A stretch of DNA of 32,000 nucleotides from Candidatus Kuenenia stuttgartensis (GCF_900232105.1 NZ_LT934425.1:2880001-2912000), one strand, 5' to 3'. Positions 2,253-27,220 are shown, numbered from the stretch's first letter. The notes: generated by a model not told the origin, from the letters alone. Made by a program: numbers and translations.

Positions 2253-3419
2253 TTATTGACTTTTACGCCGAACAGCAAGCTTTTTTCTAGTGACTACCCG
2301 TATGTTCCGGCTTGGCAATACTTCTGGCAACTTTATCTGTAATGCCTCTAATAATTCATGTGATTGTTGCCGCGGACGCGGGATCTTCTGGCAACTAGCT
2401 TTTTGGCCTTTGATTGTTACTTCCATCGAACAAATGGTCGTCAATTGTGCGAGACCTTCCTCTACCGTCAAGTCAAAATTCTTCCACGCTCTGCGCAGCC
2501 TTCGAATTATCATGTACGCAAGCATTACCACAAACACATGTCCCCGTGTACTATCCTCCTTTCTTACATACACCGGACGAACCTCCAAATTCACCGTCTT
2601 ACAGTCCCGAAACGCCTTCTCCACTTCCGTTAAATCCTTGTATCGTTCATGTACCAGATTGGTATCCGCCTCGTTCTCCTCAAGATCAGTCTTGATTGCG
2701 TAACAACCATCAAGGTATGATGCCTCCTTTAATGCTTCCTCATCTCTCTCTATCTTTAGCGTCCTATCCTCTTCTTTTATCTGCACCCACCCATCAAGTT
2801 TCAATCTCGTTAGCCTTTCCCTTGTTGTTTCCAGGGCCTTCGATACTGACGACTTAGGATGTTCCTTCAGATAACTGTTCTTCTTCACGATGTATTTCTC
2901 TATACTCTGTAATTTTGATACACGGGTCTTTGACATCTCTTCCGCCCTTACCGGATTGCGCCTCAGAATATATCTAACCTCATCATCCTTTATCTCGCAG
3001 AGCTTTTCTTCGAACAATCCTAATTGCAGTATCCCTTTATTTATCAACGACTCTATCTGCGGCTTGGTTATCGCCGTTATGTAATGAAACCCTTCCGGTA
3101 AACTTTCGATTTGCACCGTCTTGATCATCCCACGATCTCCTACAATCGTTACATCTTTGCATCCAAACCGCTCTAATACCTTCTTTACCTGAGATTCAAA
3201 GGTCTTCGGATCCTGGGTGTTGCCCCTAAATACTTCTGTTGATACCGGCTCCCCGGATTCATCACAAAGCATACCGATCACTATCTGTTTTTTCCTCTTT
3301 TTGCCGTCACGATTATACCCGTACTCACCAAAATGATTCGACTTCCCCTCTAAATAACTGCTCGTCACGTCATACAAAAACAACTTCGGCTTATTGCCTC
3401 CTCGTCTTAATGCTACGTC
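2253..3419 (-). pseudogene. IS1634-type (IS4 superfamily) DDE transposase, 5'-truncated
   Basis: The 376-aa ORF begins inside the catalytic region (LFLYDVTSSYLEG...IVGDRGM...YKDLTEVEKAFRDCK...RPVY). This parallels LYDLTNTYFEG...MDAGV...STVEESFKTMK...RPNF of the 610-aa transposase at 7458-9290. About 200 N-terminal residues are missing. The frame is open only to a stop at 3420-3422. Confidence 0.8.
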
Positions 3420-3745
3420 TTAGAATAAATGCTCCAAAAATGCCCAATTAGTCTCAGAATATTTGAGTCTAATACCCAGCAAATGATTTGAAAAATCTTA
3501 CCCAGCTACCCCGCATTTTTTTTATCCTGCGTAAGTATTTCACTTGATTTTTTGTTCACGTTAAGAAAAATACATCGTTTACCCCGTTAGAAAGAAGTTA
3601 CGTCCGTAAGGCGGAGTAAAGCCTCATTAAATAGTTTGGAAGGGGTTAAAACCACTTCCAAACTTCCTAACGGCGGTTTACTTCCCAGTTCCCCGTTTTC
3701 ACGAGGACAAGTTTTGTAAGATTTTTCCGGAACATAAAAAACTCA

Positions 3746-3787
3746 GGGCAGGAGGACCGAACGTTGGGAAACTTCATCCTCCTGCCC
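3746..3787 (-). terminator. 11-bp perfect GC-rich hairpin followed by a T-tract on the minus strand
   Basis: gggcaggagga (3746-3756) pairs with tcctcctgccc (3777-3787) around a 20-nt loop. Read on the minus strand it is followed by tgag-tttttt (plus-strand A-run 3736-3741). It lies 30 nt upstream of the GTG start at 3817. Confidence 0.4.
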
Positions 3788-3816
3788 ATTTCCCCTCTAT
3801 ACAAAGGAGGCAGTGC

Positions 3817-4455
3817 GTGAATATTATAGAAAAAATCCACAAGCATGAAAAGCTTATTGCGACAAAACAGAAGCCATGCTTTTGTCCAAAGTGCAAGAGT
3901 ACCCATGTCAATTTCACCCTTCATGAATGCAGATATCGGTTGTTTCACGTTATTATCGACTCCCTTGTTCATACGATAGAATCTTTCCTGGGACGTTGGA
4001 AATGTTCCTTGTGCAAGAAGACGTTTACTTCCTATCCTGAGTATGCGCTCCCTTACAAGCGGTACGTAAAGGATCACTGTCTCTCCTTCAGTCAGGCTTA
4101 TGTCAAAGATGATACAGAAACCTACCGGAGTGTCTCCTCTGCCATCGGATATACTACCCGAACACAGGAAATAGACAACCGCATGCTTGCCTGGTCAACC
4201 GTTTGGAGGTGGCTGCGTTTCTTTGGCTCACTGAAATACACACTCCGCAACGCCTTTGACCTCATCAGGCAGGCCGACCCCAACTCTCCGGTTTTTCGCC
4301 AAATGTTTCCCATTTACCACGGAAAGTATAAAAGCAAACAACGAAAAACCTCCCTCGATCAATCGATTCAATTGTTCAGCGCCGAGCCGGAATATCACCG
4401 AATTTTTGGGCATTCATTTTTCCCCGAACTGGCAACAAAAAGCGGCTGGTCTTGA
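3817..4455 (+). CDS. Zn-ribbon protein of the transposon (212 aa), function unknown
   Basis: GTG start 5 nt after aaggagg. Two CxxC pairs are present (CPKC ... CSLC). It is the first gene of the co-oriented set. Confidence 0.6.
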   Translation: MNIIEKIHKHEKLIATKQKPCFCPKCKSTHVNFTLHECRYRLFHVIIDSLVHTIESFLGRWKCSLCKKTFTSYPEYALPYKRYVKDHCLSFSQAYVKDDTETYRSVSSAIGYTTRTQEIDNRMLAWSTVWRWLRFFGSLKYTLRNAFDLIRQADPNSPVFRQMFPIYHGKYKSKQRKTSLDQSIQLFSAEPEYHRIFGHSFFPELATKSGWS

Positions 4456-4493
4456 GTTACAATCACCTCCACACTTAAAAAAGGAGGTGAATT

Positions 4494-6054
4494 ATGAAAT
4501 CGAAAGACGAAAAATGGGCTTTATTCTGGTGCAATCTTCTGCATCCTGTCATCTTCGGTGAGATTGAGAAGGAGCAGACCAACCTTTTTCTGAAAAAACT
4601 CTGCCTTCAGGAGGTCGTATTCCCCAACGGAAAGCGGAAAAGACCCACTATCTCTACCCTCAGGAGAAAACTCAACCGCTACCGCAAAGATGGATTTCAA
4701 TCTCTTGCAAGAAAGGCGAGGAGCGACCGTGGCGCATCCAGAAGGTTTTCTCCTGAAATTATCGACAAAGCCGTTGAACTCAAAAAAGAACAACCACGCC
4801 GCAGCGACGATTGCCTCAACCGCTTTCTTGAGAAATACTATGGGAAAACGATCCCCAAATCCACCCTCTACCGCCATCTCAGACTCGCAGGGGCGACCCG
4901 GCTCAAACTCGGCGTCTCACAGCAAAAGGTGCGTATACGCTCTTAGCCGTGAGCATACCCACGACCTCTGGATTGGCGACTTCCAGGAAGGCCCTTTCGT
5001 GCTCGTTGACGGCGAGGCGCTTCCCACAAACCTCTGTCTCTTTATCGACTGCTACAGCCGTTATGTGGTCGAAGGACGGTATTATCTCAAACAAACCCTC
5101 GATATCCTTATCGATTCTCTCATCAGGGCCTGGACTATCCACGGCTCGCCCAAAGAACTCTACCTCGACAATGCCAAGGTCTACCACTCTGACGCCCTGC
5201 GCTCTGCCTGTTACAACCTCGGCATTAAACTCATCCACAGACCACCACGCGACCCTGCTCCCGGCGGACTGGTCGAACGTTTCTTCGGCACCAGCCAGAC
5301 ACAGTTCGAGTCGGAAGTCCGCTCCGGCGACATTATCACCCTTGATGCCATTAACCAGGCCTTCTCCGCTTACCTTGCCGTTGTCTATCACGCAAGAATC
5401 CACTCCGAAACCAATCAATCTCCAAAACAACGCTACGACGAGGGGCTTACCGTCATCCGACACGTCGATATGGACGCCGCTCTTGCCTTCTTCATGAAAC
5501 GCATCCCCAGAACCGTTGACAGAACCTTTGCCGATGTCCGCATTGATAACCGCTTTTACCGTGTTGACCCCAAACTCAGAGGCGATAAAGTAGAAGTCCG
5601 TTACGACCCATACGGCGATCTCAAAAAGGTCTTGATCTATTCCGCAAACGGTGAATACCTCGGCTCGGGAAATCTCTACCTGCGCGACCAGGGCGCTGAA
5701 ACTCCAGCCGCCTCACCTTCAAAACCAAAACATAATTACCTCGACCTTATCACTCAGAAACACAAATCCATTCTCCAGGCTCAGGCCAAAGGCATTGATT
5801 ACCACCAAATCATCTCCGAACGACCCTGGCCATTCATGGCATTCGTCCAGAAACTCGCACTCCTCATGGGACACAAAGGCTCTCTCTCCGCCTTCAGCTC
5901 TCATGAACTCGAATCGCTTAAAAAATGCTACAACCGTATCCCCGCTCTCAACGAATCATTGCTCACGGAGGCATTCCAAAATGCCTCCGTGAAAACCTTA
6001 CCCTATATCATTCGTGAATTACAAATCGCTTACTCGAAAAAGGAGGTCTCTTAA
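4494..6054 (+). pseudogene. MuA/TnsB/TniA-like DDE transposase (HTH + rve core + Mu-transposase C-terminal domain), split by a +1 frame change near 4930-4946
   Basis: ORF 4494-4946 encodes the HTH-like N-terminus and ends ...GVSQQKVRIRS*. The +1 frame continues ...SREHTHDLWIGDFQEGP...YLDNAKVYHS...PPRDPAPGGLVERFF (D, D, E core). It then reads ...VRIDNRFYRVDPKLRGDKVEVRYDPYGDLKKVLIY, which is Mu-C-like. A strong SD (aaggaggtg) precedes 4494. Confidence 0.8.
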
Positions 6055-6056
6055 CC

Positions 6057-6848
6057 ATGTTTACTTCTCATTTTTCCATGACTACTCAGCCGTTCTCTGA
6101 AAGAATCAACACCAGCCTTATCATGAAAGACGAACGCTTTACCCAGGGGCTTGCACGACTCCAATACCTCTTACACTCAGGCTCTATCGCCGTCCTCTAC
6201 GGACAGACGGGAGTCGGAAAATCCACACTCCTCAAACTCTTCCTCTCACAAATCCCCCAAAACCTGTTTCTCCCCATCTACCTCCATTTTACCCACCTAA
6301 AATCATCCAGCCTTCTCTCCTTAATCGTCTCCCAGCTCGGTGAAATACCAAAACACACCAAAGACCGGCTCTTCCTCCAAATTATGGATAAATCCTTGCG
6401 CTCAAATCTCACTCCCATTATCGTTATCGACGAGGCTCATCTCCTGAAAACCGACGCCATCACAGACCTCAGACTCCTTGTCAGCTCTCCGCTTGATTCT
6501 TCCACTCATCTCAAAATCATCCTCTCGGGACAGGAACACCTCAAATATATCCTCAAAAGAGACATCCATGCCGACTTCGCACAACGCATCTCGGTACATT
6601 ACCACATTCATCCCCTTACTAAAACTCAAACCGCTGCATACATAGACTTCCATCTGAAATCTTCCGGCGCATCCGATAAAATCTTTGACTCAGACGTCAA
6701 AGACCTGATCCATGAGTTCTCCGCCGGCATCCCAAGGCAAATCAACGCCATTTCCACCGCCTGCCTGATTAACGCTTCCATCAGACAATCACAGAAAATT
6801 ACCCAGGATATCTTCCATCAGGCTCTTGCTGAAATTCAATCTTTTTAA
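6057..6848 (+). CDS. ExeA/TniB-like AAA+ ATPase (transposition regulator/target-capture type)
   Basis: Walker A is GQTGVGKST and Walker B is IIVIDEAH. ...LSGQEHL... and SAGIPRQIN resemble the ExeA (COG3267) pattern G(Q)PEL / GGIPRLIN. An AAGGAGGT SD is present, and the gene starts 3 nt after the transposase stop. Confidence 0.8.
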   Translation: MFTSHFSMTTQPFSERINTSLIMKDERFTQGLARLQYLLHSGSIAVLYGQTGVGKSTLLKLFLSQIPQNLFLPIYLHFTHLKSSSLLSLIVSQLGEIPKHTKDRLFLQIMDKSLRSNLTPIIVIDEAHLLKTDAITDLRLLVSSPLDSSTHLKIILSGQEHLKYILKRDIHADFAQRISVHYHIHPLTKTQTAAYIDFHLKSSGASDKIFDSDVKDLIHEFSAGIPRQINAISTACLINASIRQSQKITQDIFHQALAEIQSF

Positions 6849-6859
6849 GGAGGTCTACC

Positions 6860-7162
6860 ATGGCCCGTCTCTTTTCCCCTCAACTCTTGCGCTCATTACG
6901 AAACGATATCCCCATCGATCGACTCATCACTGATGTCCTCTCCATACCTCATAAATACTCCGAAGGCTATTTCCGCTTCCTCTGCCCTCTCTGTTCTGAA
7001 TTTAATTCCGCCACCAACCCAAATACGAACCTCGCCAGGTGTTTCCGTTGTAAAAAAAACTTTAATACCATCGACATCGTCATGGTAGATTCCAACTCCT
7101 CTTTCCCAGATGCTGTCTATCTGCTAAAATCCGTTTTACCTCAATATATTAATTCCACTTAA
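6860..7162 (+). CDS. Stand-alone CHC2/primase-type zinc-finger protein (100 aa)
   Basis: IPIDRLITDVLSIPHKYSEGYFRFLCPLCSEFNSATNPNTNLARCFRCKKNFNTIDIVM follows the DnaG zinc-binding-domain layout (CPxx...S..V.......CFxC...G..I.F) but with a CxxC...CxxC ligand set. An AAGGAGGT SD is present. Confidence 0.6.
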   Translation: MARLFSPQLLRSLRNDIPIDRLITDVLSIPHKYSEGYFRFLCPLCSEFNSATNPNTNLARCFRCKKNFNTIDIVMVDSNSSFPDAVYLLKSVLPQYINST

Positions 7163-7193
7163 TCTGAGAATTCCAGGTTCATTTATTGTGGGG

Positions 7194-7378
7194 CTTAGCA
7201 ACCGGGCATTTGCTCCACGATCCTTATGGACCGCTTCATGGACTCTCTCCCGGAACATCAGCTTACCCATAAAATTCAATACCGGTAAAAGCCCTGCATG
7301 TACCGTTAAGCCTTTCCCGCTCATCTCTGCCTTGATTTTCGGTTGTCTTTTGCTGTATTTTTTTGCTATATTCTTCAT
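7194..7378 (-). pseudogene. N-terminal stub (~60 codons) of an IS1380/IS4-superfamily transposase
   Basis: ...EMSGKGLTVHAGLLPVLNFMGKLMFRERVHEAVHKDRGANARL resembles the N-terminal (G)LTSxAGLLLL..F...L.L motif of IS1380-type transposases. Plausible sequence stops where the transposon end abuts it (~7194). Confidence 0.4.
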
Positions 7379-7457
7379 CGAAATGGTGAATCTCCTTTCA
7401 GGTGTTTTTTGTTATCAATATACCGCCGAATACCTTGGAAATCCTACCATTTCAATC

Positions 7458-9290
7458 CTATTCCTGCAACAAGGCTTTGCCTTGTTTGCAGGATTTAGGT
7501 TGTAGTTTATTGTAAATCGTGTGCTGCTTTTCCGTGGGCGCTGTGCAGGTTCTGACGTCAATAACGCAGCCGTCCTTTGTGTTCATGGTCGTTGTTACCC
7601 TTATATGGGTGGCAAGGATATTACGAATCGTATTCCAATTATAATGAACCCCTGCGGTTCTTAGCTTTTTTAATATCCCGGCAAGTATGTGATAGGCCAA
7701 TACAGTGACATGCACGTGGGCAATGGTTGGGGTATCTGTGTGGTGAAAGTTTGGCCGTAAACCAAGGTTGCCTTTCATTGTTTTAAAACTTTCCTCAACA
7801 GTACTCAACGACCTATGGAGCTTTGATATCTCTTCCCCGCTAAGATCAAGTCGGTTTGTCCGTAATACATACGTGCCTATGGCTTCTTCCTTTGCTTGCG
7901 CCTGAGCATTTTTCTTAAATTTGATATCGGTCGCTTTGCCATCCGTCTGTTCCACTTTGATCGTATATAAATTGCCCACCTTGTAGCGTTCTTTTAACCG
8001 GCCTATCCTCTCTATGATCGTATCATATTTTTTCTGTCTTTTTGGCTTCTCTAATCCTTCTTTTATTGCCGAGAGCGCCTCTTCAAACCTTTGTTCTTTC
8101 AGGGAAAGGATGGACTTCTCTTTTGGCTCTTTTGCCTCGCTGTGGCATAAAAGGAATGCCTCTTCTTCAGTACGGACTAATTTCATGCCCAACGTTGTTT
8201 TCCCGTCTGATAACATAATCTTCTCTTCGTCCGTTTCAGGCCAAAAAGTATCTTCAAAAGATTTCTTGCGCGAGACGACCACATATTTATAGCCACTCTT
8301 CCTGATAAGCGCAATGTTCTCTTCCGTTGCAACCCCTGCGTCCATAACTATCGTTCTATCATTTGAAAACATACCGTCTTCTTTTTTTAATCCCTCCAAA
8401 ATATCTTTCAGGGTACCAGGCTCCGACACATTGCCCTCAAAAACCTTGCTCTGCTTGGGAAATCCCTCTTCATCAACGGTAAGGGATAGCGTAATTAACG
8501 GACAATCATTACGGCTCTCTTTTGATTTGTAGCGCCGGGCCACCTTACTCCCTCTTTTGCTACCCTCAAAATAGGTATTTGTTAAATCATATAAAATCAC
8601 CGTCTCTTTAAGGGAAAATATCTCTCGCGCCCGCTTTGACAACTCTTGCTCTATGGCGGCATGATTCTCCCAAAGCAAGACTGCCGCGCGATGCAGCGCT
8701 TTATCATACAGTTTAACCCCGGAGTCCAACAGCTCTCCCGCCCCGCTTGTTTCAGAAAGCCATCGCACGGTATCACGCTCGCTGCCGGGATGAACCATTC
8801 TCCCCACAATGAGCATCTTGGAATAGGCAATCTGGTCATCTGTAAAATCAAGCCCTTGCAATATCTTATCAAACCCGTATTCATTCATTTGGCTTATGGC
8901 CACGTGTTCGGCGCCTACGGTCTTTGCATCATTTGTTATCAGGGAATTAATATTCACATGCTCGTATTGAGCAGGTTCTTCCCCTGCTGATTCACCGCCG
9001 GTAATACGTTCTTGCGCCCTGTCCAACCGCTCCTGTCTTATCTGGCTGGCATAATGCCTTGCTTTCGCCTCTATTTCAGGATCTTGAGGAAACAACGTTT
9101 TTTGATTTGCTAAAAATCCTTCAATGCAATTGGCAAGGGTCTTCCACTTCTCCTCGGGCAGACTAAGCTGCCCAAGGTTTAAGACTATTTGCTGTCTTGG
9201 CCCTGAAGGGGTGCGAATGGATTCGATGAGTTGGTGTTGTATGTAGCTCTTCCCGCCATTCACTTTTTTGATCTTTTCACGGATAAACAC
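7458..9290 (-). CDS. IS1634-family (IS4 superfamily) DDE transposase, apparently intact (610 aa, GTG start)
   Basis: The N-terminus MFIREKIKKVNGGKSYIQHQLIESIR is typical of IS1634-type proteins. Catalytic blocks are LYDLTNTYFEG, VMDAGVATEENI and STVEESFKTMKGNLGLRP. I could not define the IS ends. Confidence 0.85.
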   Translation of the reverse strand: MFIREKIKKVNGGKSYIQHQLIESIRTPSGPRQQIVLNLGQLSLPEEKWKTLANCIEGFLANQKTLFPQDPEIEAKARHYASQIRQERLDRAQERITGGESAGEEPAQYEHVNINSLITNDAKTVGAEHVAISQMNEYGFDKILQGLDFTDDQIAYSKMLIVGRMVHPGSERDTVRWLSETSGAGELLDSGVKLYDKALHRAAVLLWENHAAIEQELSKRAREIFSLKETVILYDLTNTYFEGSKRGSKVARRYKSKESRNDCPLITLSLTVDEEGFPKQSKVFEGNVSEPGTLKDILEGLKKEDGMFSNDRTIVMDAGVATEENIALIRKSGYKYVVVSRKKSFEDTFWPETDEEKIMLSDGKTTLGMKLVRTEEEAFLLCHSEAKEPKEKSILSLKEQRFEEALSAIKEGLEKPKRQKKYDTIIERIGRLKERYKVGNLYTIKVEQTDGKATDIKFKKNAQAQAKEEAIGTYVLRTNRLDLSGEEISKLHRSLSTVEESFKTMKGNLGLRPNFHHTDTPTIAHVHVTVLAYHILAGILKKLRTAGVHYNWNTIRNILATHIRVTTTMNTKDGCVIDVRTCTAPTEKQHTIYNKLQPKSCKQGKALLQE

Positions 9291-9549
9291 ACCGGTATTT
9301 TACCATGTAAGCAATGGCGCCGCAAGCATAAACAATAATATTCAGGCACTACATTAAACGCCGAAAGCAACATTCAACCATACCAATAGGTTACGACTAT
9401 TATACGCTCAATTTCTTGCCTTTTTCAGGGTAAATTTGTCGAAGTTGGGTTAAGAGTACCGTATTTTACAGTAGGCACTAATCCCATTCTCACGAGTAAA
9501 AATACCTTGTGAGTGAAAATAAAATAGTTAAAAAGTGTAGTAAAAGCAA

Positions 9550-10137
9550 CTATGCGACCAATCGAGCCCCTTCTGCCCTGGAAAAATCGATTCGTTCAAG
9601 AATAAATTTTGTAAGGATTGACTTTTGAGATGAATCCACGAGAAATTCAGGAAGGCAATTTCTCATTGCAATGGCCGTCACTTGTTCTGAAGGACAAATT
9701 CCCGGTCTCATAGTCCGCAACCATGACCCGAAGGAATTCCAAACAAGCGATGGAAATGCTGAAGAAATATATTGCAAAAGCCCCTGTGCAATAACGCCGG
9801 CCTGTATATGTCTGTGATAGGCTGCAAGTTTTCTGCGAACTGCATTTCTGTATTCAGAGCTTCTTTTGTGAACATGTTGATTGCCGGAACGCCTTTTAAT
9901 TGGCTGCATATTTCTCATCCAAAAATGGTAGGCATATGTGCCCAAGGTTCTAAGCGCCTGTTTGAAAGACACTTCGATTTTGAAACGCAATCCATACAGG
10001 CAGATAATTTCCATTGCATTAATAGTTAAATCCGTACTCATTAAAATAATTTTCCCTCTTTGAGGGTGATCCACCAATACAAATCGAATAAGAATACCCA
10101 CGGGTTTCCAAAGCAGATCAAGGGTTCTATAATTTAT
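9550..10137 (-). pseudogene. C-terminal part of an IS4/IS701-like DDE transposase, interrupted by the ISL3 element
   Basis: Contains the C-terminal Y-x2-R-x3-E block (YGLRFKIEVSFKQALR). The reading frame stays open upstream of the annotated GTG (GINYRTLDLLWKPVGILIRF...) right up to the ISL3 left end at 10138. Confidence 0.65.
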
Positions 10138-11518
10138 GCCTCATCCGCAGAATCTGTGGGTAAGTATTGGTTCCGGCAAATTACCAAGAGTATGATACAA
10201 GGCTGTTTGCAGGCATTCCAGAGATTTATAACCATAAGCCTTTCTCATAGTCAGTTTCGCCTTAAGGTTAAACCCCTCAACCGTACCGGAAGAAAGTCTG
10301 CCATCAGCCTTGAACCAGTTGAGAATGAGCTGCTTGTGATTGCGCAACATCTTTGCCACTTTTTTCATAGGTTCCAGGTTGGTTTTTAGGGTTCTCGTAA
10401 TCCAGTTCTCGAGAAACCTGTCTGCATACGCCGGATACTTATACTCCCAAAAACGCTGAAAATCTTCACGCATTAAATATGCCTTTATTGAACTCAGGTT
10501 GATCTTAACTATCTGGCTTAACCGTACCGTTTGCTTTTCTGTCAAGTTCTCAGGCCTTTTCAACAGTAACCAACGGCTCTTTTCCAAAACATTGTCTGTG
10601 CCTTCATCCTTGAGCTTTTTGACCTCTTCCCTCCGTATCTGGTCTATGGCTTCATTGAATTTCTTCATGATGTGGAAACGGTCAAGAATATTAAGCGCCT
10701 GGGAAGCCTTCTTCGCTATCACCTTCAGGTACGGCGACCACATATCGCTGCAAACGAATTTGATTCTCAGACAACGTTCTATACCTAACTCCATGAAAAA
10801 CTTCCGCAGGGTCTTTGCCTTCCGCTCAGGGCCACTCCATAAAAGCCTTTTGGCATGCGAATCAAGCTGATATACAAGGGTTAAATACTTGTGGCCACTC
10901 CAGACTTGTATCTCGTCTATTCCTATTTCCGTTATATTCTCCAAGTCCCTGTGGGCAAGGCCGTAGGCAACTACAAACTGCACTGCCCTATACACACTGT
11001 CCCAACTGGACTTGAATATCTCGGCTGTCTCTTTCCAACTCAGGCGTTTAGCCCATCGAGACAGGAATACCTTGTATGTGGTGGTCATCTGCTCCTTACC
11101 TTCTGACCAGGGAATTCGCTCTACATGGATTCCGTCCACTGGACAGGCGGCGCGTCGCGGGGAATATCGGAAAAATACTTGAAACCCCCATAATGGCGGA
11201 TACTCGTATAACCGGGACGGCTGTGTATCATACCCAGACGCTCTCTTCCCACATACTGAACATTCAGGCTTGGCATTTACCCTCGGCTTTATATCTGCTA
11301 CTAATGCCTTTCTACCATTTATGACCTCGAAACTGACTGCTTTGTAAACAAATGACTTGAAATTCTCTACCGTATTTAATAATGTCTTTATCTGCATTGC
11401 CTCTCCTTTTGGGTTAAGATGCTTTCTTGATAAAAAACATCTTACTCCCTTTGGGATGGCAATGCACCTTTTCTCTTACTAATCCTTACTTATTACCCAC
11501 AGATTCTGCGGACGAGCC
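10138..11518 (-). mobile_element. ISL3-family insertion sequence (1381 bp) with terminal inverted repeats
   Basis: The left end is gcctcatccgcagaatctgtgggtaa. The reverse complement of the right end is ggctcgtccgcagaatctgtgggtaa, so 24 of 26 bases match, with a GGCTC-type ISL3 terminus. It carries one transposase gene. Confidence 0.9.
10141..11397 (-). CDS. ISL3-family transposase (418 aa)
   Basis: An N-terminal zinc-finger region (CSVCGKR...C) is followed by IGIDEIQVWSGHKYLTLVYQLD..., ...CSDMWSPYLK... and ...TVEGFNLKAKLTMRKAYGYKS, which is the typical ISL3 DDE layout. Confidence 0.9.
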   Translation of the reverse strand: MQIKTLLNTVENFKSFVYKAVSFEVINGRKALVADIKPRVNAKPECSVCGKRASGYDTQPSRLYEYPPLWGFQVFFRYSPRRAACPVDGIHVERIPWSEGKEQMTTTYKVFLSRWAKRLSWKETAEIFKSSWDSVYRAVQFVVAYGLAHRDLENITEIGIDEIQVWSGHKYLTLVYQLDSHAKRLLWSGPERKAKTLRKFFMELGIERCLRIKFVCSDMWSPYLKVIAKKASQALNILDRFHIMKKFNEAIDQIRREEVKKLKDEGTDNVLEKSRWLLLKRPENLTEKQTVRLSQIVKINLSSIKAYLMREDFQRFWEYKYPAYADRFLENWITRTLKTNLEPMKKVAKMLRNHKQLILNWFKADGRLSSGTVEGFNLKAKLTMRKAYGYKSLECLQTALYHTLGNLPEPILTHRFCG

Positions 11519-19468: not shown

Positions 19469-19888
19469 ATGATGTCTTTTTTGGTTAGATTCGGGGTTTC
19501 TCTGGAAAAGGAACTCCTTAAGAAATTTGATACCCACATAAAGAAGAAAAAATATACCAACCGTTCGGAGGCAATACGTGATCTGATACGCGGTAATTTG
19601 GTGATGGAAGAATGGCAGGAAGGCAAGGAGATTACCGGTTCTATCACACTTGTTTACGATCATCATAAAAGGGAACTGGTAAACATGCTCATTGATATCC
19701 AGCACGACTATCATGGTATTATCCTTTCTTCCCAGCATATCCATCTAGATCATGATAATTGTCTTGAAATCATTGTTATAAAAGGCAAGCCGCAAATGGT
19801 AGAGGAATTATACGGAAAACTGAAATCGGCAAAAGGTGTTAAACACGGGGGCATATCCATGGCAACTACGGGAAAGGGGATTTTGTAA
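19469..19888 (+). CDS. nikR: Nickel-responsive regulator NikR (ribbon-helix-helix + C-terminal metal-binding domain)
   Basis: RFGVSLEKELLKKFD...YTNRSEAIRDLIR is the RHH domain. HDYHGIILSSQHIHLDHDNCLEIIVIKG is the His/Cys nickel-site region. The ATG at 19469/19472 follows GAGG, whereas the ORF-track start at 19424 adds an atypical extension. Confidence 0.85.
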   Translation: MMSFLVRFGVSLEKELLKKFDTHIKKKKYTNRSEAIRDLIRGNLVMEEWQEGKEITGSITLVYDHHKRELVNMLIDIQHDYHGIILSSQHIHLDHDNCLEIIVIKGKPQMVEELYGKLKSAKGVKHGGISMATTGKGIL

Positions 19889-19921
19889 ATATGGCCTTTT
19901 CTAATCAAGCCCGGATTTCTG

Positions 19922-19939
19922 CACTATGCTTGCATAGCG
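19922..19939. promoter_or_regulatory. Imperfect palindrome cactatgc-tt-gcatagcg (possible distal operator)
   Basis: It shares the CTATGC/GCATAG half-site core with the palindrome at 20022-20038, about 90 bp away. It is duplicated at 27095-27112. Confidence 0.25.
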
Positions 19940-20019
19940 GCAAACATGGATACAATGAGAACGGGTTTCCTTCTGCCATTGCAAAAAAACATCCCGGAAT
20001 ATTCGTGATATTATTTTTT

Positions 20020-20047
20020 TTGTGCTATGCAATAGCACGAGTATATT
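20020..20047 (+). promoter_or_regulatory. Candidate cbiM promoter with an embedded perfect 7-3-7 palindrome (putative NikR operator)
   Basis: TTGTGC (20020-20025), 16 nt, then TATATT (20042-20047). The palindrome GTGCTAT-gca-ATAGCAC (20022-20038) fills the spacer. It lies 41 bp upstream of the cbiM start. Confidence 0.4.
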
Positions 20048-20079
20048 ATACGTACTACTGGTAACCGGAGGAGACATTT

Positions 20080-20685
20080 TTGCATATTAGCGACGGAGTA
20101 CTTTCTCCCTACATTGTCATTACCGGATGGGCTGTTGCAGCCCCTTCGTTAGCGATGTCGGTAAAAAGCCTGAAACCTGACAAAGTCGGTGCATACGGAG
20201 TAATTGCCGCTGTTTTTTTTGCAGGTTCGACAATCCACATACCCCTTGGACCTTTCAGCATGCATCTTGTCCTCAATGGTATTGCAGGACTTTTACTGGG
20301 ATGGAGCGCTGTAACCGTAATAACGGTAGGCCTTTTGCTGCAGGCTTTGTTCCTTGGTTTTGGAGGATTGACTGTGTTGGGGGTAAATATTGCTGTTATG
20401 GCGTTGCCTGGCGCGATTATCGGCATGCTTGGACGCCATTGGATGAAACAGTTTTCAGCGAAAAAACGGCCATGGATAGGATCGTTCGCGGGTGGCGGTG
20501 CTGTATGTATTTCGTCCGTTTTACTCTTTGTTGCGCTTTCTACAACCCATGCGGCGCTGGCGCCCCTTGCCAAACTGGTTTTTTGGGGACATGTTCCTGT
20601 CATACTTGTTGAAGGCGTTATCAGTTATTGGCTGGTACACTTTTTGCAAAAAGCAAAACCTTCGTTATTAGGAATTTTACATTGA
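20080..20685 (+). CDS. cbiM: ECF-type Ni/Co transporter substrate-capture component CbiM/NikM (copy 1)
   Basis: TTG start 7 nt after GGAGGA. The N-terminus is the hallmark MHISDGVL (MHIxDG). The protein has about 6 TM helices and is followed by cbiQ and cbiO. Confidence 0.9.
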   Translation: MHISDGVLSPYIVITGWAVAAPSLAMSVKSLKPDKVGAYGVIAAVFFAGSTIHIPLGPFSMHLVLNGIAGLLLGWSAVTVITVGLLLQALFLGFGGLTVLGVNIAVMALPGAIIGMLGRHWMKQFSAKKRPWIGSFAGGGAVCISSVLLFVALSTTHAALAPLAKLVFWGHVPVILVEGVISYWLVHFLQKAKPSLLGILH

Positions 20686-21099
20686 AAGCTTTCTTATTCG
20701 TTTTTTTTTGTATCTTTTTTTCGGTGCCTTTAGCGGTATATGCACACGGACTTTCTCTTTTTTCTAAGGAGAAAACATTGTATGCATCTTACAGCGATCA
20801 TACACCTGCCTCAGGAGCAAAGGTTGTTCTTGTGGATGCAAATGGCGTAATAATTCTTCAGGATAAAATGGATGAAAAGGGGATAGTGGAAGTTGCCGGA
20901 GAATTTGGAGACAATACCTCACTTAATCATTGTAGATGATTCCGGAGGTCATCGTGCAATGATAACATGGGAGGAATTTCTTAAAGAACGCCCAAAGGGG
21001 TTGTTAGACATTTTAAGTATCCGCGTGGTAATTGGAGTCATGTTCATTATCGGCGGCGGTTATGCCATACAACGGTTTTTATTAAAAAAAAAGACATAA
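20682..21099 (+). pseudogene. CbiN/NikL-type 2-TM auxiliary component, frameshifted in copy 1
   Basis: Relative to the intact copy (27855-28271) there is an extra G at 20886 (gatagtgg against gatatgg). This splits the gene into ORFs 20628-20939 and 20893-21099. Confidence 0.75.
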
Positions 21100-21818
21100 T
21101 GCCATTTTGCAAACTACAAAAATTGAAATTGCCGCCGGCTTCTACCCGCACAGGAACGATACTGGTTTTGCTTGTACTGGTGGGTATAGGTTTGCTGAAT
21201 AATTTTGGGCCTCTTGTTGTTTGCCTGTTTATGGTGTTATTGTTTGGTGTATTCACAGTTGGAAACATATTCATTGTTGTATGCCATGCAAAAGGAGTCT
21301 GGGTTTTTTCCCTTCTCACCGGTGTAAGCCTTTTGCTAACAAAAGAGGGCAGAGCGCTTGCCCCAATCCTCATGGTCAAAATGTTTTCAATGTGGTTGTG
21401 GAGTGTAATCTGGATTAAATGGGTGGGATTTGAACGTATTTTGTCAACCTTAGAGAAAATGGGAATACCGGCAATTTTGTTAAATGTCATTGCATTTACC
21501 ACGCGTTTTTTACCTATTATGGGGGAACGGATAAAAATGACGTTTGCCGCACAGTCTTCACGCGGTGCAAAAAAGGGGTTGCGTTCCCTGCAATTACGAA
21601 ACCTTGCCGGGGGGATTGGCAGTGTGCTTTTGTCTAGTTTTGAGCAATCTGAAAATGTTGAACGTGCAATGCAATCACGCGGATTTTGCGGAACATATAC
21701 TATCAGCACAGACAAAGACGAAGCGCCCTCGTATGTTGTTTTGTCTCTGATGTTTTTAATGGCTTTTTTAATTTGGACCGGAGTGATTTGCGATGTCCTG
21801 TGTGGTAAGTGTTTATAA
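21099..21818 (+). CDS. cbiQ: ECF transporter transmembrane (T) component CbiQ/NikQ (copy 1, intact)
   Basis: Polytopic protein with the two coupling-helix motifs AAQSSRGA and ERAMQSRGF. Start and stop overlap as TAATG. Confidence 0.85.
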   Translation: MPFCKLQKLKLPPASTRTGTILVLLVLVGIGLLNNFGPLVVCLFMVLLFGVFTVGNIFIVVCHAKGVWVFSLLTGVSLLLTKEGRALAPILMVKMFSMWLWSVIWIKWVGFERILSTLEKMGIPAILLNVIAFTTRFLPIMGERIKMTFAAQSSRGAKKGLRSLQLRNLAGGIGSVLLSSFEQSENVERAMQSRGFCGTYTISTDKDEAPSYVVLSLMFLMAFLIWTGVICDVLCGKCL

Positions 21819-22521
21819 CGTTACGTTTCTTTATCCGAATGGTGTGCAGGCGATATCAGGATTATCATTTTCCGTTCACCAACATGAAAAGGTGGGTCTG
21901 ATCGGGCCTAGTGGCGCTGGCAAAACAACCCTTTTTTGGCACTTAAACGGGCTTTTAAGACCACATTCGGGAGAAGTTCGTGTTTTGGACAAACCGCTTA
22001 CCGGACTCAAAAATATTAATGAAGTTCGGAAGCATGTCGCCCTTACTTTTCAGCAGGTAAACGATCAGCTTTTTTGTTCTTCCGTCTGGGAGGAAATTGC
22101 ATTTGGACCGAAAAATTTGTATTGGCCAAAGCAGCAGGTGGCAGACACGGTGGAAAAGTGGCTGGCGTATTTTGAATTAAATGATGTTCGGGAACGGCCG
22201 CCGCATCATTTATCGGGAGGGCAGAAGCGCAGGGTTGCACTGGCGGCAGCTATGGCGATGGAACCCGATTTGTTAATCCTCGATGAACCAGCAAACGACC
22301 TGGACCACCGTCATAGACGTAAATTAATAACCTATCTGAAAGGATTAAGAATTGCTCTTCTGGTGGCCTCACATGATTTACGCCTGATAGAGGAATTGAC
22401 CGAACGGTGCATTCTTATGGATAAAGGCAGGATTGTTGCAGACAAAACTACCGTTGAGTTGGTACATAATGAAGGTATTTTAAAAAAGTACGGGATGGAG
22501 GCAATACCGATAAAAGAATAA
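21793..22521 (+). CDS. cbiO: ECF/ABC transporter ATPase CbiO/NikO (copy 1)
   Basis: Walker A is GPSGAGKTT, the signature is LSGGQKRRV, Walker B is LLILDEP and the H-loop is ASHD. Confidence 0.92.
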   Translation: MSCVVSVYNVTFLYPNGVQAISGLSFSVHQHEKVGLIGPSGAGKTTLFWHLNGLLRPHSGEVRVLDKPLTGLKNINEVRKHVALTFQQVNDQLFCSSVWEEIAFGPKNLYWPKQQVADTVEKWLAYFELNDVRERPPHHLSGGQKRRVALAAAMAMEPDLLILDEPANDLDHRHRRKLITYLKGLRIALLVASHDLRLIEELTERCILMDKGRIVADKTTVELVHNEGILKKYGMEAIPIKE

Positions 22522-22601
22522 ATATTTTTTTAATTATGGTGGCACGATAGTAATAAGTGTGCTATTTAATTCCCTTTATTTTGTTAAAAGGAGTTCTTGT
22601 G

Positions 22602-23609
22602 ATGAACAATCGTTTTTTTTACAGTTTTATTCTTATACTTTTTTTCTGTTGCGCAAGTAACGCTGGAAAAGTGTATGCCCATCATGGAGGCGTTTCTACC
22701 GCCTTTGGCCCTGGCGCACCTGTTGAAACTGCATCGCCTATGACTCTCGGGAAAGGGAAATTTTTGCTTTACGAAAAAATAGAATTTGCGTCTTTTGAAC
22801 AAAAGAACCATGCTGACCCTGAAAACATTGAAAACTTTACCTTCTTTAACACATTAGCCGGCTATGGCATTACTGACTATTTATCCCTCTATCTTGTGAT
22901 GCCTTATGCTATTAAAGAACAAGACTCCTTAGGCACATCGAAGGGGTTTGGTGATGCTGGATTTTTAGTACAATACGGTTTTAAGTACGGCGAGAGAAAC
23001 GGGATTCGGGGTTTTTATAATAACGGCCCGGAAGATACTATTGGAGAAAGTTACACGACTAATGATCTGAAAATGTCGGTTTTAGGGGGTTTTACTGTTC
23101 AGACCGGTGATATTACAAACGAAGATAATAATGGCAACAGGTTTGACATGGGCATGCAGACAGGTTTTGCCGCGCCAACGTTTATGACAGGTTTCTCCGC
23201 ATCAAAAATGCTTTTTCAGCACTTTACTCTTACCGGGGAGACATCATTTACCACCTTTACCCGTCATGATGACGGTAAACCTGGAAATGAGATCCGTTTC
23301 AATCTGGCCGGAGGGTATGAAATATTTGAAAATCCTCAGGGATTTTTCCAAAGGGTAGATATTATTACTGAATCAAACTTCCTCCATCTGACAAAAGATG
23401 AAGACGAACACCATCACGATGAAGATGACAGCGGGGGAACGATTCTGTATCTTTCACCTGGCTTTCGCGTTTCTCTTAAGAAAAATATCAGTATCGGAGG
23501 GCTTCTGAAATTTCCCGTATGGAAGGATTTGAACAGGGAATCGGAGCAACAGGGCGCTGAAGGACTTGAACACTATAGGGCAATTCTCACCGTGACATAT
23601 TCTTTTTAA
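22602..23609 (+). CDS. Outer-membrane beta-barrel protein with a His/Asp-rich loop (putative metal channel), copy 1
   Basis: Signal peptide ...NAGKVYA|HHGG. The body shows an alternating beta-strand pattern. There is a DEDEHHHDEDDSGG loop and a C-terminal ...TVTYSF (terminal Phe). An SD (aaggag) lies before GTG/ATG at 22599/22602. Confidence 0.7.
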   Translation: MNNRFFYSFILILFFCCASNAGKVYAHHGGVSTAFGPGAPVETASPMTLGKGKFLLYEKIEFASFEQKNHADPENIENFTFFNTLAGYGITDYLSLYLVMPYAIKEQDSLGTSKGFGDAGFLVQYGFKYGERNGIRGFYNNGPEDTIGESYTTNDLKMSVLGGFTVQTGDITNEDNNGNRFDMGMQTGFAAPTFMTGFSASKMLFQHFTLTGETSFTTFTRHDDGKPGNEIRFNLAGGYEIFENPQGFFQRVDIITESNFLHLTKDEDEHHHDEDDSGGTILYLSPGFRVSLKKNISIGGLLKFPVWKDLNRESEQQGAEGLEHYRAILTVTYSF

Positions 23610-23679
23610 GGACGCCAACCCTGGCAGGGTTTTCTGGTCAATAATACCTTAAACCATTTATAGAGAAGGAGGAAAAATT

Positions 23680-24249
23680 ATGCTAAAAACACGAATATGG
23701 AAAAAGCAGATGATTGCAATACTTTTTTGGGCTTGTTGTACATTTCTGTCTCATCAAAAATGCATATTTGCACATGAAGGCCATGACCACTGGAGTAATA
23801 CCCCTATAACCATTAAAAGATCGACAGTAGTGCATTTGCAGTCGCTATTGGAATCATATGATCTTCTCTACAAAAAACTTATAGAGAAAGATATCCAAAA
23901 TATTCCTGTATTGGCGCAAAATATTATGGATGCTGCGCAACAGGGTGTTCAAACTGAAAATAAAGGTGAGGGGCGTTATATGATGGAACATATTTTTCAG
24001 CATGCGATATCTCTTAAAGAATGTGAAACCCTGGAAAATGCAAAAGAATCTTTAGGGTTAATAAGCCGTGAACTGTTTCCGTTCTTTATTGCATGGCCAA
24101 TGCAGCTTAAAGAAAACAAGTTAAGGCTTTATCATTGTAAAAATGATGAAAAATACTGGTTTCAGGCAGAAAATAGCGCTCCAAATTGCCCTTATGCTCA
24201 CGATGAATTATCAACATGCATTATTATTGAGGAAGTAGCGTATAAATGA
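23680..24249 (+). CDS. Exported helical protein with N-terminal HEGHDH and a C-terminal Cys/His motif (DUF3347-like by recollection), copy 1
   Basis: AAGGAGG SD is present. The signal peptide is ...HQKCIFA|HEGHDHW. The C-terminus is LYHCKNDEKYWFQAENSAPNCPYAHDELSTC. Confidence 0.65.
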   Translation: MLKTRIWKKQMIAILFWACCTFLSHQKCIFAHEGHDHWSNTPITIKRSTVVHLQSLLESYDLLYKKLIEKDIQNIPVLAQNIMDAAQQGVQTENKGEGRYMMEHIFQHAISLKECETLENAKESLGLISRELFPFFIAWPMQLKENKLRLYHCKNDEKYWFQAENSAPNCPYAHDELSTCIIIEEVAYK

Positions 24250-24656
24250 ATTGAACGACCATCTTTGCTTTAGAAAAACATGACAGTCTTATGACACCGT
24301 GTGCCCATAATTGGTCACTGTTTATATCAAGCCTTGCAGGATAGATGCGACTTTGTGTCTTAAGAAAAAAAACCGATGCGTGACCATTTATAGTCTTTCT
24401 GCGTTCTCATGTACTAATTGCATCTTTTTTGTGCTGTAATCGTAACATATTTAACAGTAGTAGCTTGTGCTTTCTTTGGTTGTGGTGGTCGTGTTGTTTT
24501 TTTCGAAATGGCGCACTTCTTGCTAAGTGTTGTTACATACAAAGTGTTTTGTTGTGTATTATTTTGCGCAGAATTTTTTACGGAAGGGGGGTGAATGTAC
24601 GGACGCATTTAAGTGTAAAAGCAGAAATTTTCGTGAGTTAGGATTGAGCAGATGTT

Positions 24657-25820
24657 ATGAATTTTGAAGGAGGTAAGCGAAGAATTATGATACGAAAGGG
24701 AATGATAGGAGCGGTGATGCTTGGAGCTGCGGTAGCGATAAGTGGCGGAGTAGCGACTGCGGGGTATATACAGGGTACGCATGTAAAGACGGATTTACCC
24801 GGGCCGTTTCACATAACGATGTCGCCGGATGGTAGTACGTTATTTATATCGAATCAATCTGGGCACAGTGTAACGTTTGTGGATGCAAGGACGCAGAAGG
24901 TAACGGGTGAGGTCGCTGTGAGGGTACAGCCTGAGGCTTCAGCGGTTACGCCTGACGGGGCATTTTTGTATGTATGTAATGCAGAGAGCGACAGTGTATC
25001 GGTAGTGGACATACAGAGGAAGCAGGAGATCAAGGAGATAAAGGTAGGTGACTGGCCGAGCGGGATCAAGATTTCGCCTGATGGCAAGACTGCCTATGTT
25101 GCATGTTCCGGTTGCATGTGGAACGCGATTGATGTAATTGATACGGGGAGGATGGAGAAGGTAAGGTCGATATATACTTCAGATTACGGTCCCAGGATGG
25201 TGGAGATATCTCCTGATGGGAAGACCCTTGTTGCGATACTTGACACGGTAGGATCGATCAACCGGAGCGTTGATTTTATTGACATTGCCAGTGGCAGGGT
25301 AGTAGAGAACAGGGTAATCCATGAGAGTTCCAACCTGAGGGATGTTGTATATACGCCGGATGGTAAATACATAGCTGTAACCCACCAGACGCCGAAGAAC
25401 TGGTTGCCGGTATGTGAAGCGGAGAATGGTCAGGTATTTACGAACAACGTAACAATCATAGAGACCAAGGCCGGTGGTAAGGTAGCGAGATTACCGTTGG
25501 ACGATCTCAACAATTACGATGGCAATCCGTATGGTATGGCGATGGACCCTAAGGGCAAGTATTTGTACATTGGGGTAAGAGGGATGCATCGTGTAACGAT
25601 ACTGGATATGGATAAGGTATTGGGTCTGGTGAGGAGCAGCACGCAGGAGGAGCTTGATTATCTGAGGGACGACCTTGGGTTGGTAAGAGATTATCTTGTT
25701 GCCAGGGTTCCTACGGGTCTGGGGCCAAGTTCGGTATGTTTATCACCTGACGGCAAATTTTGTTATGCGGCCAACTATTTTTCCAACAATGTAACCGTGA
25801 TAAGGACTGCGGTTGATTAA
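24657..25820 (+). CDS. Exported YVTN-type beta-propeller repeat protein (start may be the ATG at 24687), copy 1
   Basis: Reiterated (S/T)PDGKxxYV.N...V.V(I)D units, for example ISPDGKTAYVAC, ISPDGKTLVAI, YTPDGKYIAVT and LSPDGKFCYAAN. Signal peptide is MIGAVMLGAAVAISGGVATA. Confidence 0.85.
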   Translation: MNFEGGKRRIMIRKGMIGAVMLGAAVAISGGVATAGYIQGTHVKTDLPGPFHITMSPDGSTLFISNQSGHSVTFVDARTQKVTGEVAVRVQPEASAVTPDGAFLYVCNAESDSVSVVDIQRKQEIKEIKVGDWPSGIKISPDGKTAYVACSGCMWNAIDVIDTGRMEKVRSIYTSDYGPRMVEISPDGKTLVAILDTVGSINRSVDFIDIASGRVVENRVIHESSNLRDVVYTPDGKYIAVTHQTPKNWLPVCEAENGQVFTNNVTIIETKAGGKVARLPLDDLNNYDGNPYGMAMDPKGKYLYIGVRGMHRVTILDMDKVLGLVRSSTQEELDYLRDDLGLVRDYLVARVPTGLGPSSVCLSPDGKFCYAANYFSNNVTVIRTAVD

Positions 25821-25862
25821 GGATTGTATGGAGTGTGAGAGTTATTTATTTTTGGAAAACAA

Positions 25863-26924: not shown

Positions 26925-27003
26925 GAGAGAAGTGTATGAATGTGTAGTATAAGCGATAAAAATTTAAGGACAATAAGTGAAAGGAGAAGGCCAATAGATG
27001 GGT

Positions 27004-27061
27004 AAAAGGTGTTAAACACGGGGGCATATCCATGGCAACTACGGGAAAGGGGATTTTGTAA
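27004..27061 (+). pseudogene. Orphan 3' remnant of nikR (last ~18 codons plus stop) at the duplication junction
   Basis: Identical to 19831-19888 (...KGVKHGGISMATTGKGIL*), but preceded by the sequence downstream of the cytochrome gene. Confidence 0.9.
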
Positions 27062-27192
27062 ATATGGCCTTTTCTAATCAAGCCCGGATTTCTGCACTAT
27101 GCTTGCATAGCGGCAAACATGGATACAATGAGAACGGGTTTCCTTCTGCCATTGCAAAAAAACATCCCGGAATATTCGTGATATTATTTTTT

Positions 27193-27220
27193 TTGTGCTA
27201 TGCAATAGCACGAGTATATT
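27193..27220 (+). promoter_or_regulatory. Second copy of the candidate cbiM promoter and 7-3-7 palindrome
   Basis: Identical to 20020-20047. The palindrome is at 27195-27211. Confidence 0.4.

Follow-up and report, generated by a model that had tools for sequence, protein, structure and literature searches.

We analysed a 32,000-nucleotide (nt) stretch of the genome of Candidatus Kuenenia stuttgartensis (NZ_LT934425.1:2880001-2912000), referred to here as the window, in which positions are counted from the first letter. Positions 3411-7200 hold a four-gene mobile element, and we consider it probable (roughly 0.78) that this is one copy of a cargo-less family of DDE transposons, with a broken transposase gene, with flanks derived from two different insertions, and with a Mu/Tn552-like copy-in mode of transposition that involves zinc-protein partners. 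The four genes lie on the plus strand and span 3817-7162; they are co-oriented and tightly packed, each preceded by AAGGAGG, as already described in an earlier interpretation made without database searches (hereafter, the sequence-only reading). In order, they encode a zinc-ribbon protein of 212 amino acids (aa) (ORF1, from open reading frame; 3817-4455), a transposase of the rve type that is split between two frames (4494-6054), a 263-aa AAA+ ATPase (6057-6848) and a 100-aa zinc-binding protein (ORF4, 6860-7162).

Termini defined by independent copies

The borders of the element were set by comparison with more than 15 independent copies. In Blast alignments against copies fetched through the encoded proteins, the shared sequence extends from 3411 to 7200 irrespective of the flanks, giving an element of 3790 base pairs (bp). 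The termini have the form TGCTA...TAGCA, with 5'-TG and CA-3' at the extremities, and lie within a 22-bp imperfect inverted repeat (left, TGCTACGTCTTAGAATAAATGC, 3411-3432, plus strand; right, ...TCATTTATTGTGGGGCTTAGCA, 7179-7200, minus strand). In this copy, 16 of the 22 positions match, and the repeat is conserved family-wide (end consensus TgCTAaGTCtcAgAATaaTTGa). A motif scan detected one related 15-mer per end, about 35 bp inside the terminus, as would be expected for further transposase-binding sites. The left subterminal repeat (L2, AGTCTCAGAATATTT, 3450-3464, plus strand) repeats the terminal-site core (3416-3430) in direct orientation, with 4 mismatches in 15 positions; it is invariant in an alignment of four diverged relatives and presumably represents a second transposase-binding site. 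Its counterpart on the right (R2, ATTCTCAGATTAAGT, read inward, 7157-7171, minus strand) overlaps the end of ORF4. No second copy of the element was found in the window.

These observations displace the borders proposed in the sequence-only reading (3424-7193), along with its impression that the termini are only weakly similar and its suggestion that the pentamer cttag, which does stand at both 3419-3423 and 7194-7198, is a 5-bp target duplication. Target duplications of this length are made by Mu, Tn7 and Tn5053, and an intact, autonomous transposon at 3424-7193 with such a duplication would resemble these elements. However, both pentamers are conserved parts of the terminal repeats, present despite unrelated flanks, and the homology between copies spans the whole of 3411-7200; moreover, the duplications of the family are typically 6 bp long (range, 5 to 7), and the transposase ORF is interrupted. 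Given that the comparison of copies already refutes this interpretation, we assign it practically no probability. The alignment of other copies, which the sequence-only reading had itself recommended, did define the ends and the target duplication, and in doing so showed that those initially claimed were wrong.

A Mu-like transposase and its ATPase partner

The domains that the sequence-only reading had ascribed to the transposase were all confirmed in Pfam searches, namely an N-terminal helix-turn-helix (HTH) of the HTH_32 type (E-value 5.9e-9), the rve catalytic core, and the Mu-type C-terminal barrel, Mu-transpos_C (40.6 bits against a cutoff of 21.7); the single ORF that it assumed did not hold, the gene being split at 4941-4944. 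The catalytic residues D162, D225 and E261 are invariant in the family, with 35 residues between the last two (DD35E). When the transposase profile was compared with solved structures, the best match (1.3e-12) was TnsB of ShCAST, which is a CRISPR-associated transposon of type V-K; TnsAB fusions and retroviral integrases came next. In addition, the transposase aligned with Tn552 p480 at 95% probability over the core and the barrel (hhalign) and matched the Mu-type phage transposase family phrog_310 (1.2e-44); the direct hhalign comparison with MuA was weak (30%).

The adjoining gene encodes the anticipated ExeA/TniB-like AAA+ ATPase, as indicated by a match to AAA_22 (5.4e-21, Pfam), and the residues of its Walker A (GQTGVGKS) and Walker B (IVIDEAH) motifs are invariant in the family. 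The ATPase profile retrieved MuB (8xvb, 3.4e-9), the TnsC proteins of Vibrio (VchTnsC, 1.2e-5) and Scytonema (ShTnsC, 1.2e-3) from the PDB; hhalign probabilities were 96.9% for MuB over 218 columns and 92.6% for Tn552 p271, and the Mu-type phage family phrog_296 was matched at 6.7e-24. The profile searches suggested by the sequence-only reading therefore returned rve, Mu-transpos_C and AAA_22, and also a zinc ribbon of the DnaG type. Its placement of the element among transposons of the Mu/Tn7/Tn552/Tn5053 type is borne out by the combination of an rve transposase carrying a Mu C-terminal barrel with an AAA+ regulator. The hallmarks of this superfamily are all present, including the DD35E rve core with its barrel, the adjoining ATPase of the MuB/TnsC/TniB/p271 type, and 5'-TG...CA-3' ends with repeated sites.

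Two conserved zinc proteins

The core pair is flanked by genes for two small zinc-binding proteins, both of which had been recognized in the sequence-only reading. ORF1 contains the CxxC...CxxC zinc ribbon noted there (C23, C26, C63 and C66) and, C-terminal to it, a helical part that includes an HTH-like stretch, 'STxxRW'. The four-cysteine pattern is invariant in the ORF1 family and 'STxxRW' is conserved; judging from its residues, this stretch looks like an HTH recognition helix. All 28 ORF1 proteins of the family matched DUF6431 (PF20020; best E-value, 3.8e-9), with the window protein by itself giving a weak match. An exhaustive profile search placed ORF1 relatives in 587 representative clusters (E<=1e-3), and the narrow family of 29 relatives suggested by a first k-mer search was rejected on this ground. 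Genes for DUF6431 proteins adjoin rve transposases in Ruminococcus as well (PMC12323340).

ORF4 is a free-standing zinc-binding domain of the DnaG primase type, with a Zn_ribbon_DnaG score above the Pfam cutoff (26.5 against 24.9 bits), in agreement with its initial description as a CHC2-type zinc finger; the four cysteines that would serve as C4 ligands (C42, C45, C61 and C64) are invariant. The protein is predicted to fold like the zinc-binding domain of DnaG primase. Its AlphaFold model has high confidence (predicted local distance difference test, pLDDT, 91.5), and the top Foldseek match in the PDB is 1d0q, the zinc-binding domain of Bacillus DnaG primase, with a template-modelling score (TM) of 0.74 over 95 of the 100 residues. 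Searches of the PDB chains with the ORF1 and ORF4 sequences yielded nothing. The two zinc proteins lie at the extremes of conservation, ORF4 being the most conserved of the four proteins and ORF1 the fastest evolving: in comparisons with distant relatives, the median identities of ORF4, the transposase, the ATPase and ORF1 are 61%, 55%, 48% and 36%, respectively.

Distribution and target duplications

The transposase family comprises 1479 clusters above threshold, nearly all of them with proteins of 518-521 aa. With one genome scanned per species, 80 loci were recovered; they belong to Thermodesulfobacteriota, Planctomycetota, Oligoflexia, Chloroflexota, Cloacimonadota, Gammaproteobacteria and other groups, and a few come from archaeal bins that may result from mis-binning. 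The four proteins of the window were then used as queries against all ORFs of these loci. In essentially every complete locus, the genes followed the order ORF1 - transposase - ATPase - ORF4, which answers in the affirmative the question, posed in the sequence-only reading, whether the zinc-protein genes co-occur with the transposase/ATPase pair in other copies. Across the family, the element is 3.6-4.4 kilobases (kb) long and consists of these four genes only, with no cargo. Two complete four-gene elements (L013 and L045) are located on short contigs in bins labelled Methanophagaceae and Thermoplasmatales; these could represent either true transfer to archaea or mis-binned repeat contigs.

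Desulfoferrobacter suflitae DRH4, a 'delta proteobacterium' metagenome-assembled genome (MAG) and a Desulfatiglandales MAG each carry 7-10 near-identical copies, and in these three multi-copy genomes the element has sharp TCCTA...TAGCA borders and direct target repeats. The target duplications that we could score (n=21, all on long contigs) were 6 bp long in 16 cases, 7 bp in three and 5 bp in two; short stand-alone contigs of 3.5-4.5 kb were left out of this count because the flanks of collapsed repeats can be chimeric. In DRH4, a cultured isolate, the copies (L025-L034; element 4432-8752) measure 4321 bp and exceed the others by about 500-600 bp, the extra length being contained in a region of about 840 bp between the left end and ORF1; at least seven of them are 99.9-100% identical and have intact duplications.

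Reconstruction of the empty sites identified as targets genes for IS1634-type, IS4-type and IS701-type (twice) transposases, Transposase_29, an integrase, McrBC and a GIY-YIG protein. The prevalence of mobile and defence genes among these targets may reflect targeting, or only the tolerance of such insertions. Other copies in Kuenenia similarly have transposase genes and the maturase of a group II intron as neighbours.

Exchanged flanks of the Kuenenia copies

The copy in the window is inserted between fragments of two unrelated transposase genes. On the left, the element abuts the C-terminal two thirds of an IS1634-family transposase (2253-3410, minus strand; transpos_IS1634 of NCBIfam, E-value 7.6e-75, model positions 134-482 of 483), which lacks its first approximately 133 codons and is cut exactly at the element end. 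On the right, it abuts the first approximately 59 codons of an IS1380-family transposase (7201-7378, minus strand; transpos_IS1380 of NCBIfam, model positions 1-43). The last 6 bp of the left flank (3405-3410) are TCTTAA and the first 6 bp of the right flank (7201-7206) are ACCGGG, that is, halves of two different target duplications, so that the flanks mismatch and this copy has no duplication. The reciprocal layout, ACCGGG-element-TCTTAA, is found at a sister copy (L087) in another Kuenenia assembly. When the left flank of the window copy is fused to the right-hand flank of L087 and one TCTTAA is removed, a 562-aa IS1634 ORF that is open across the junction is restored; the converse fusion, of the L087 left flank to the right flank of the window copy with one ACCGGG removed, recovers the IS1380 frame (...RGANARYQFVDEV...) with one internal stop. 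The reciprocal flanks and the restored empty sites together indicate that there were two separate insertions, both of which generated a 6-bp duplication, and that their flanks were swapped afterwards.

This exchange, possibly an inversion, might have occurred via homologous recombination between copies or via intramolecular copy-in transposition, the DNA itself being compatible with either route. Among the five Kuenenia copies for which both flanks are available, none has an intact duplication, and a few copies in other genomes lack one likewise; the general causes of missing target duplications have been treated elsewhere (PMC11708052). The intactness implied in the sequence-only reading does not apply to this copy, then, on two counts: rearrangement has made its flanks chimeric, and its transposase gene is frame-broken.

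A frame break shared by all Kuenenia copies

The N-terminal part of the transposase, with the HTH_32 domain (4494-4946, plus strand), stops at a premature TAG, and the catalytic part (4945-6054, plus strand), made up of the rve core, the barrel and a tail at the C terminus, is read in the +1 frame. The cause is evident from the DNA alignment, in which relatives have CGC TGG AGC (R-W-S) and all Kuenenia copies have CGC TCTT AGC, so that TCTT at 4941-4944 (plus strand) replaces TGG, shifts the frame by +1 and abolishes the nearly invariant W150. In intact homologues, one ORF encodes the entire protein of 518-521 aa. Because of this replacement, the copy in the window is, to judge from its reading frames, unable to make a full-length transposase. 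The same lesion is present in every Kuenenia copy that we fetched, with at least eight different flanks and 99.8-99.9% identity between copies, and it was found across very many samples (132 index blocks). On this evidence, the simplest interpretation would be a defective lineage that is still rearranging and may perhaps be mobilized in trans.

A seemingly intact 519-aa transposase in one Kuenenia locus (L101) was considered as a potential helper and rejected. It is 99.8% identical to the window copy, and its frame is restored only by the loss of 1 nt in a G run 50 nt upstream of the lesion, next to other homopolymer indels, with about 17 scrambled residues remaining; the restored frame most likely represents a sequencing error. 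L101 (OCTL01000041.1) and L088 (OCTL01000026.1), from one assembly, cover the same locus, with 99.7% identity over 9.5 kb, and, at any rate inside the element, several of the differences between them amount to the gain or loss of one base in a homopolymer run. This assembly thus holds redundant, error-bearing versions of some regions.

Alternatively, the frame break could be programmed, with a +1 ribosomal shift at UCU-UAG-C, where a serine codon precedes a stop. In that case, the lineage in Kuenenia would be active and would regulate itself, a 150-aa HTH protein being made by default. The shift sites of antizyme (UCC-UGA) and prfB (CUU-UGA) have a similar layout, the required shift is exactly +1 and falls on a stop codon, and the catalytic frame downstream is otherwise undamaged. 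Furthermore, the occurrence of one lesion in near-identical copies at so many sites and in so many samples implies spread after the change. However, every other member of the family has one uninterrupted ORF, the change eliminates a nearly invariant tryptophan, and a serine tRNA on UCU would, in our reading, re-pair poorly on CUU. The sole Shine-Dalgarno-like motif, AAGGTG (4926-4931), is located 9 nt upstream of the shift codon, compared with a spacing of about 3 nt in prfB, and the complete lack of intact duplications among the two-flank Kuenenia copies also argues against an active lineage. Programmed frameshifting therefore appears decidedly unlikely, and we retain the interpretation of a defective lineage.

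Relationship to described transposons

The absence of TnsA, TniQ and a resolvase, which the sequence-only reading had singled out, was upheld by searches of the four proteins against Pfam and NCBIfam, which produced no such match. Specifically for TniQ (PF06527)/TnsD, there was no Pfam match in 28 ORF1 members (E<=0.01) or in the ORF1 and ORF4 of the window (E<=0.1).

Against this background, the element resembles Tn552 of Staphylococcus (p480, p271 and BinL) in combining an rve transposase that has a Mu-type barrel with an ATPase of about 270 aa and in lacking TnsA. Tn552 generates a 6-bp target duplication (PMC3276174), a feature that our family shares, given that 16 of the 21 duplications are of this size; repeat arrays at the ends are another point of likeness (PMC8649781). 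Unlike Tn552, which carries bla, the element has neither the BinL resolvase nor a res site nor cargo; its inverted repeats are about 22 bp long with one subterminal site, as opposed to about 120 bp in Tn552; it has two extra conserved zinc proteins; and the similarity is detectable at the profile level only. To phage Mu it is linked by the ATPase, whose nearest solved relative is MuB, by the matches of the transposase to phrog_310 and Mu-transpos_C, and by the TG...CA ends, whereas it has no phage structural or lysis genes and, within its 3790 bp, only four genes, two of which, ORF1 and ORF4, are extra with respect to Mu. From Mu, Tn7 and Tn5053 alike, it differs in that its duplications are mostly 6 bp.

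Among Tn7-like elements, the type V-K systems come closest, as TnsB of ShCAST is the closest solved transposase, TnsC is found by the ATPase profile, TnsA is missing and a small zinc protein stands alongside the core. However, ORF1 and ORF4 show no TniQ/TnsD signal, the fold match of ORF4 is the primase zinc domain, and the four proteins include neither TnsA nor the resolvase of the TnsA-less lineages (for the definitions of Tn7-like elements, see PMC8649781). Cargo is present in 96% of Tn7-like elements (PMC8649781) and absent from this one. Tn5053/Tn402 (TniA, TniB, TniQ and TniR) likewise has a four-gene module, an rve transposase with an AAA+ partner and no TnsA, but the present element lacks TniQ, a resolvase and a res site, and its match to Pfam TniB is below the cutoff (14.4 against 22.4 bits).

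IS21 (IstA/IstB) is similarly compact and cargo-less, with an HTH-rve transposase followed by an AAA+ helper of about 260 aa and with multiple end repeats. The element differs from it in two extra genes and in the lack of IstB_IS21 among the Pfam hits of the ATPase; no IstA chain appeared among the PDB matches of the transposase profile, and no IstB chain among the best 60 matches of the ATPase profile. Membership of IS21 was rejected because transpos_IS21 of NCBIfam scores 42 bits against a cutoff of 160, and membership of IS481 because transpos_IS481 scores 79 bits against a cutoff of 224 and the element has three further conserved genes. The first three genes occur in the same order in unnamed DUF6431 - rve - AAA elements on plasmids of Streptomyces, Mycobacterium, Rhodococcus and Thermobacillus. 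In these, the transposase is about 31% identical over 85% of its length and DUF6431 is annotated or was detected upstream, but no gene similar to ORF4 was detected.

In the literature and in Pfam/NCBIfam, we found no paper or curated profile that names the four-gene family, with ISfinder and TnCentral names being outside this comparison. The best fit to these comparisons is an apparently undescribed, widespread variant of the Mu/Tn552/Tn5053 kind, in which the two conserved zinc proteins are an addition not described for Mu, Tn552, Tn5053 or the Tn7-like elements.

Mode of transposition

A reaction of the Mu/Tn552 type is suggested jointly by the domains present, by the TG...CA termini with their repeated sites and by a duplication of fixed length. 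Under the model that we propose, the transposase, with its HTH, DD35E core and Mu-type barrel, would bind the terminal and subterminal sites, pair the ends, nick the 3' ends at ...CA, and join them to target DNA with a 6-bp stagger, while the MuB/TnsC/p271-like ATPase, bound to the target, would deliver it and activate the transposase. The product would be a branched strand-transfer intermediate, completed by replication or repair, as in the copy-in transposition of Mu, Tn552 and Tn5053; this route is favoured because the element lacks a nuclease like TnsA that could cut the 5' strands. Given that there is no resolvase either, cointegrates would be left to host recombination. ORF1, with its zinc ribbon and HTH, may be a sequence-specific DNA-binding partner with a role in end recognition, regulation or target choice, and ORF4 may have as its target either DNA, single-stranded or forked, or a component of the host, primase or replisome, and so tie strand transfer to priming or replication.

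Several observations weigh against this model or parts of it. The roles of ORF1 and ORF4 and the copy-in route are deduced from domain content and from absences. The ORF1 model from AlphaFold is poor (pLDDT 61), Foldseek found nothing meaningful for it in the PDB, and the evidence for its HTH consists of a sequence motif and of Pfam hits of single members. At least eight near-identical Kuenenia copies have a broken transposase, a situation that would be difficult to account for unless a helper element or recoding is involved. Of about 26 insertions in other genomes, 21 have intact duplications, which fits cut-and-paste or copy-out/paste-in equally well. The best curated match of the catalytic domain is the IS481 model, under its cutoff as noted above, and enzymes of the IS481/IS3 type work by copy-out/paste-in. 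Finally, the family may already carry a name in ISfinder or TnCentral.

The last two mechanistic points bear on a different route, in which the same element would move conservatively or by copy-out/paste-in, through an excised or circular intermediate in the style of IS3, IS481 and IS21, with the ATPase only selecting or preparing the target, as IstB does. Such a route would account for the simple insertions with intact duplications elsewhere, for the lack of a resolvase and a res site, and for the many near-identical copies in several genomes, and it agrees with IS481, IS3 and IS21 being the best curated models for the catalytic domain. The profiles, however, lead elsewhere, the transposase to TnsB and retroviral integrases rather than IstA, and the ATPase to MuB and TnsC, with no IstB among its best 60 matches, and the Mu-type barrel is present. 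The frequent flank exchange in Kuenenia also speaks for copy-in, although homologous recombination alone could cause it. We regard the copy-out route as a serious but less probable alternative and continue to prefer copy-in.

As for the zinc proteins, we tentatively entertain the stronger proposal that both are obligatory transposition factors, in a minimal 'Mu without the phage', with ORF4 as the link between strand transfer and either the host primase or DNA that is forked or single-stranded, thereby choosing replication forks as targets or priming copy-in; we consider this possible but less likely than not. If true, such a coupling role would have no counterpart in Mu, Tn7, Tn552, Tn5053 or IS21. 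Conversely, ORF1 and ORF4 might stand outside the transposition machinery and be passengers or regulators; one could be a repressor, for instance, and the other a factor that acts against the host or interferes with replication. The related three-gene elements on Streptomyces and Thermobacillus plasmids, which do without ORF4, imply that such a core can exist alone, and the fast evolution of ORF1 is a further point in favour of this view. Nevertheless, the presence and order of both genes are strictly conserved across phyla in an element of 3.7-4.4 kb without other cargo, ORF4 is more conserved than the transposase itself, and DUF6431 accompanies rve transposases in distant lineages too, all of which makes a passenger status unlikely.

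Left-end features and the surrounding window

The untranslated region at the left end contains two further features. An extra segment of about 129 bp (3583-3711, plus strand) is specific to the Kuenenia type and is missing, in the alignment, from L003, L005 and L006, relatives that are 80-88% identical; an imperfect 33-nt inverted repeat is located inside it, at 3615-3682. A near-copy of the last 20 bases of this segment (CCCGTTTTCACGAGGACAAG) occurs elsewhere in the left end of L005, and the recurrence suggests a small mobile or recombining repeat. Just 5' of the ORF1 ribosome-binding site, a hairpin (3746-3787, plus strand) is formed by perfect 11-nt arms (GGGCAGGAGGA / TCCTCCTGCCC) around a loop of about 20 nt. 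In the alignment of four diverged relatives, both arms are kept and the loop is variable; one arm is Shine-Dalgarno-like and the other is its complement. This putative regulatory element might control translation or block read-through from outside. An Rfam search of 3300-7300 gave no match, and a promoter and terminator scan gave nothing convincing, with nine promoter-like hits against 4.1 expected and none obviously placed.

The element is part of an insertion-sequence nest (2253-11397) that includes the IS1634 fragment, the four-gene element, the IS1380 fragment and further transposase genes, namely a 610-aa IS1634-type gene (7458-9290, minus strand), a 183-aa fragment (9550-10101, minus strand) and a 418-aa gene (10141-11397, minus strand) whose sequence looks like that of an ISL3-type transposase. 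Farther downstream, the window contains a direct duplication of about 4.5 kb (19800-24300 and 27000-31500; spacing, 7172-7173 bp) with 98-100% identity. The duplicated block includes a putative CbiM/N/Q/O-like metal-uptake operon, as read from the translations, a 350-aa gene and a 189-aa gene. The two copies have different frame breaks (103 and 156 aa at 20628/27801; 239 aa and a split into 106 + 204 aa at 21099/28271), which could be due either to real decay or to homopolymer sequencing error. The region between the duplicates (24500-27000), with a 387-aa and a 353-aa gene, has a G+C content of 0.47-0.48, compared with about 0.40, and a GC skew of +0.33, and looks compositionally foreign.

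Implications

Systems that combine a DDE transposase with an AAA+ protein, such as Mu, Tn7, CRISPR-associated transposons and IS21, are the main models of regulated target choice and the base of programmable DNA-insertion tools. The family described here, which is abundant in anaerobic sediment and wastewater bacteria, is among the smallest such systems, and in it the TniQ/TnsD selector and TnsA or a resolvase are replaced by two other zinc proteins. The roles of ORF1 and ORF4 could reveal a new mode of target selection or a new link between transposition and replication. In Kuenenia genomes, the element is a marker of rearranged sites, where flanks have been swapped between copies nested in other insertion sequences.

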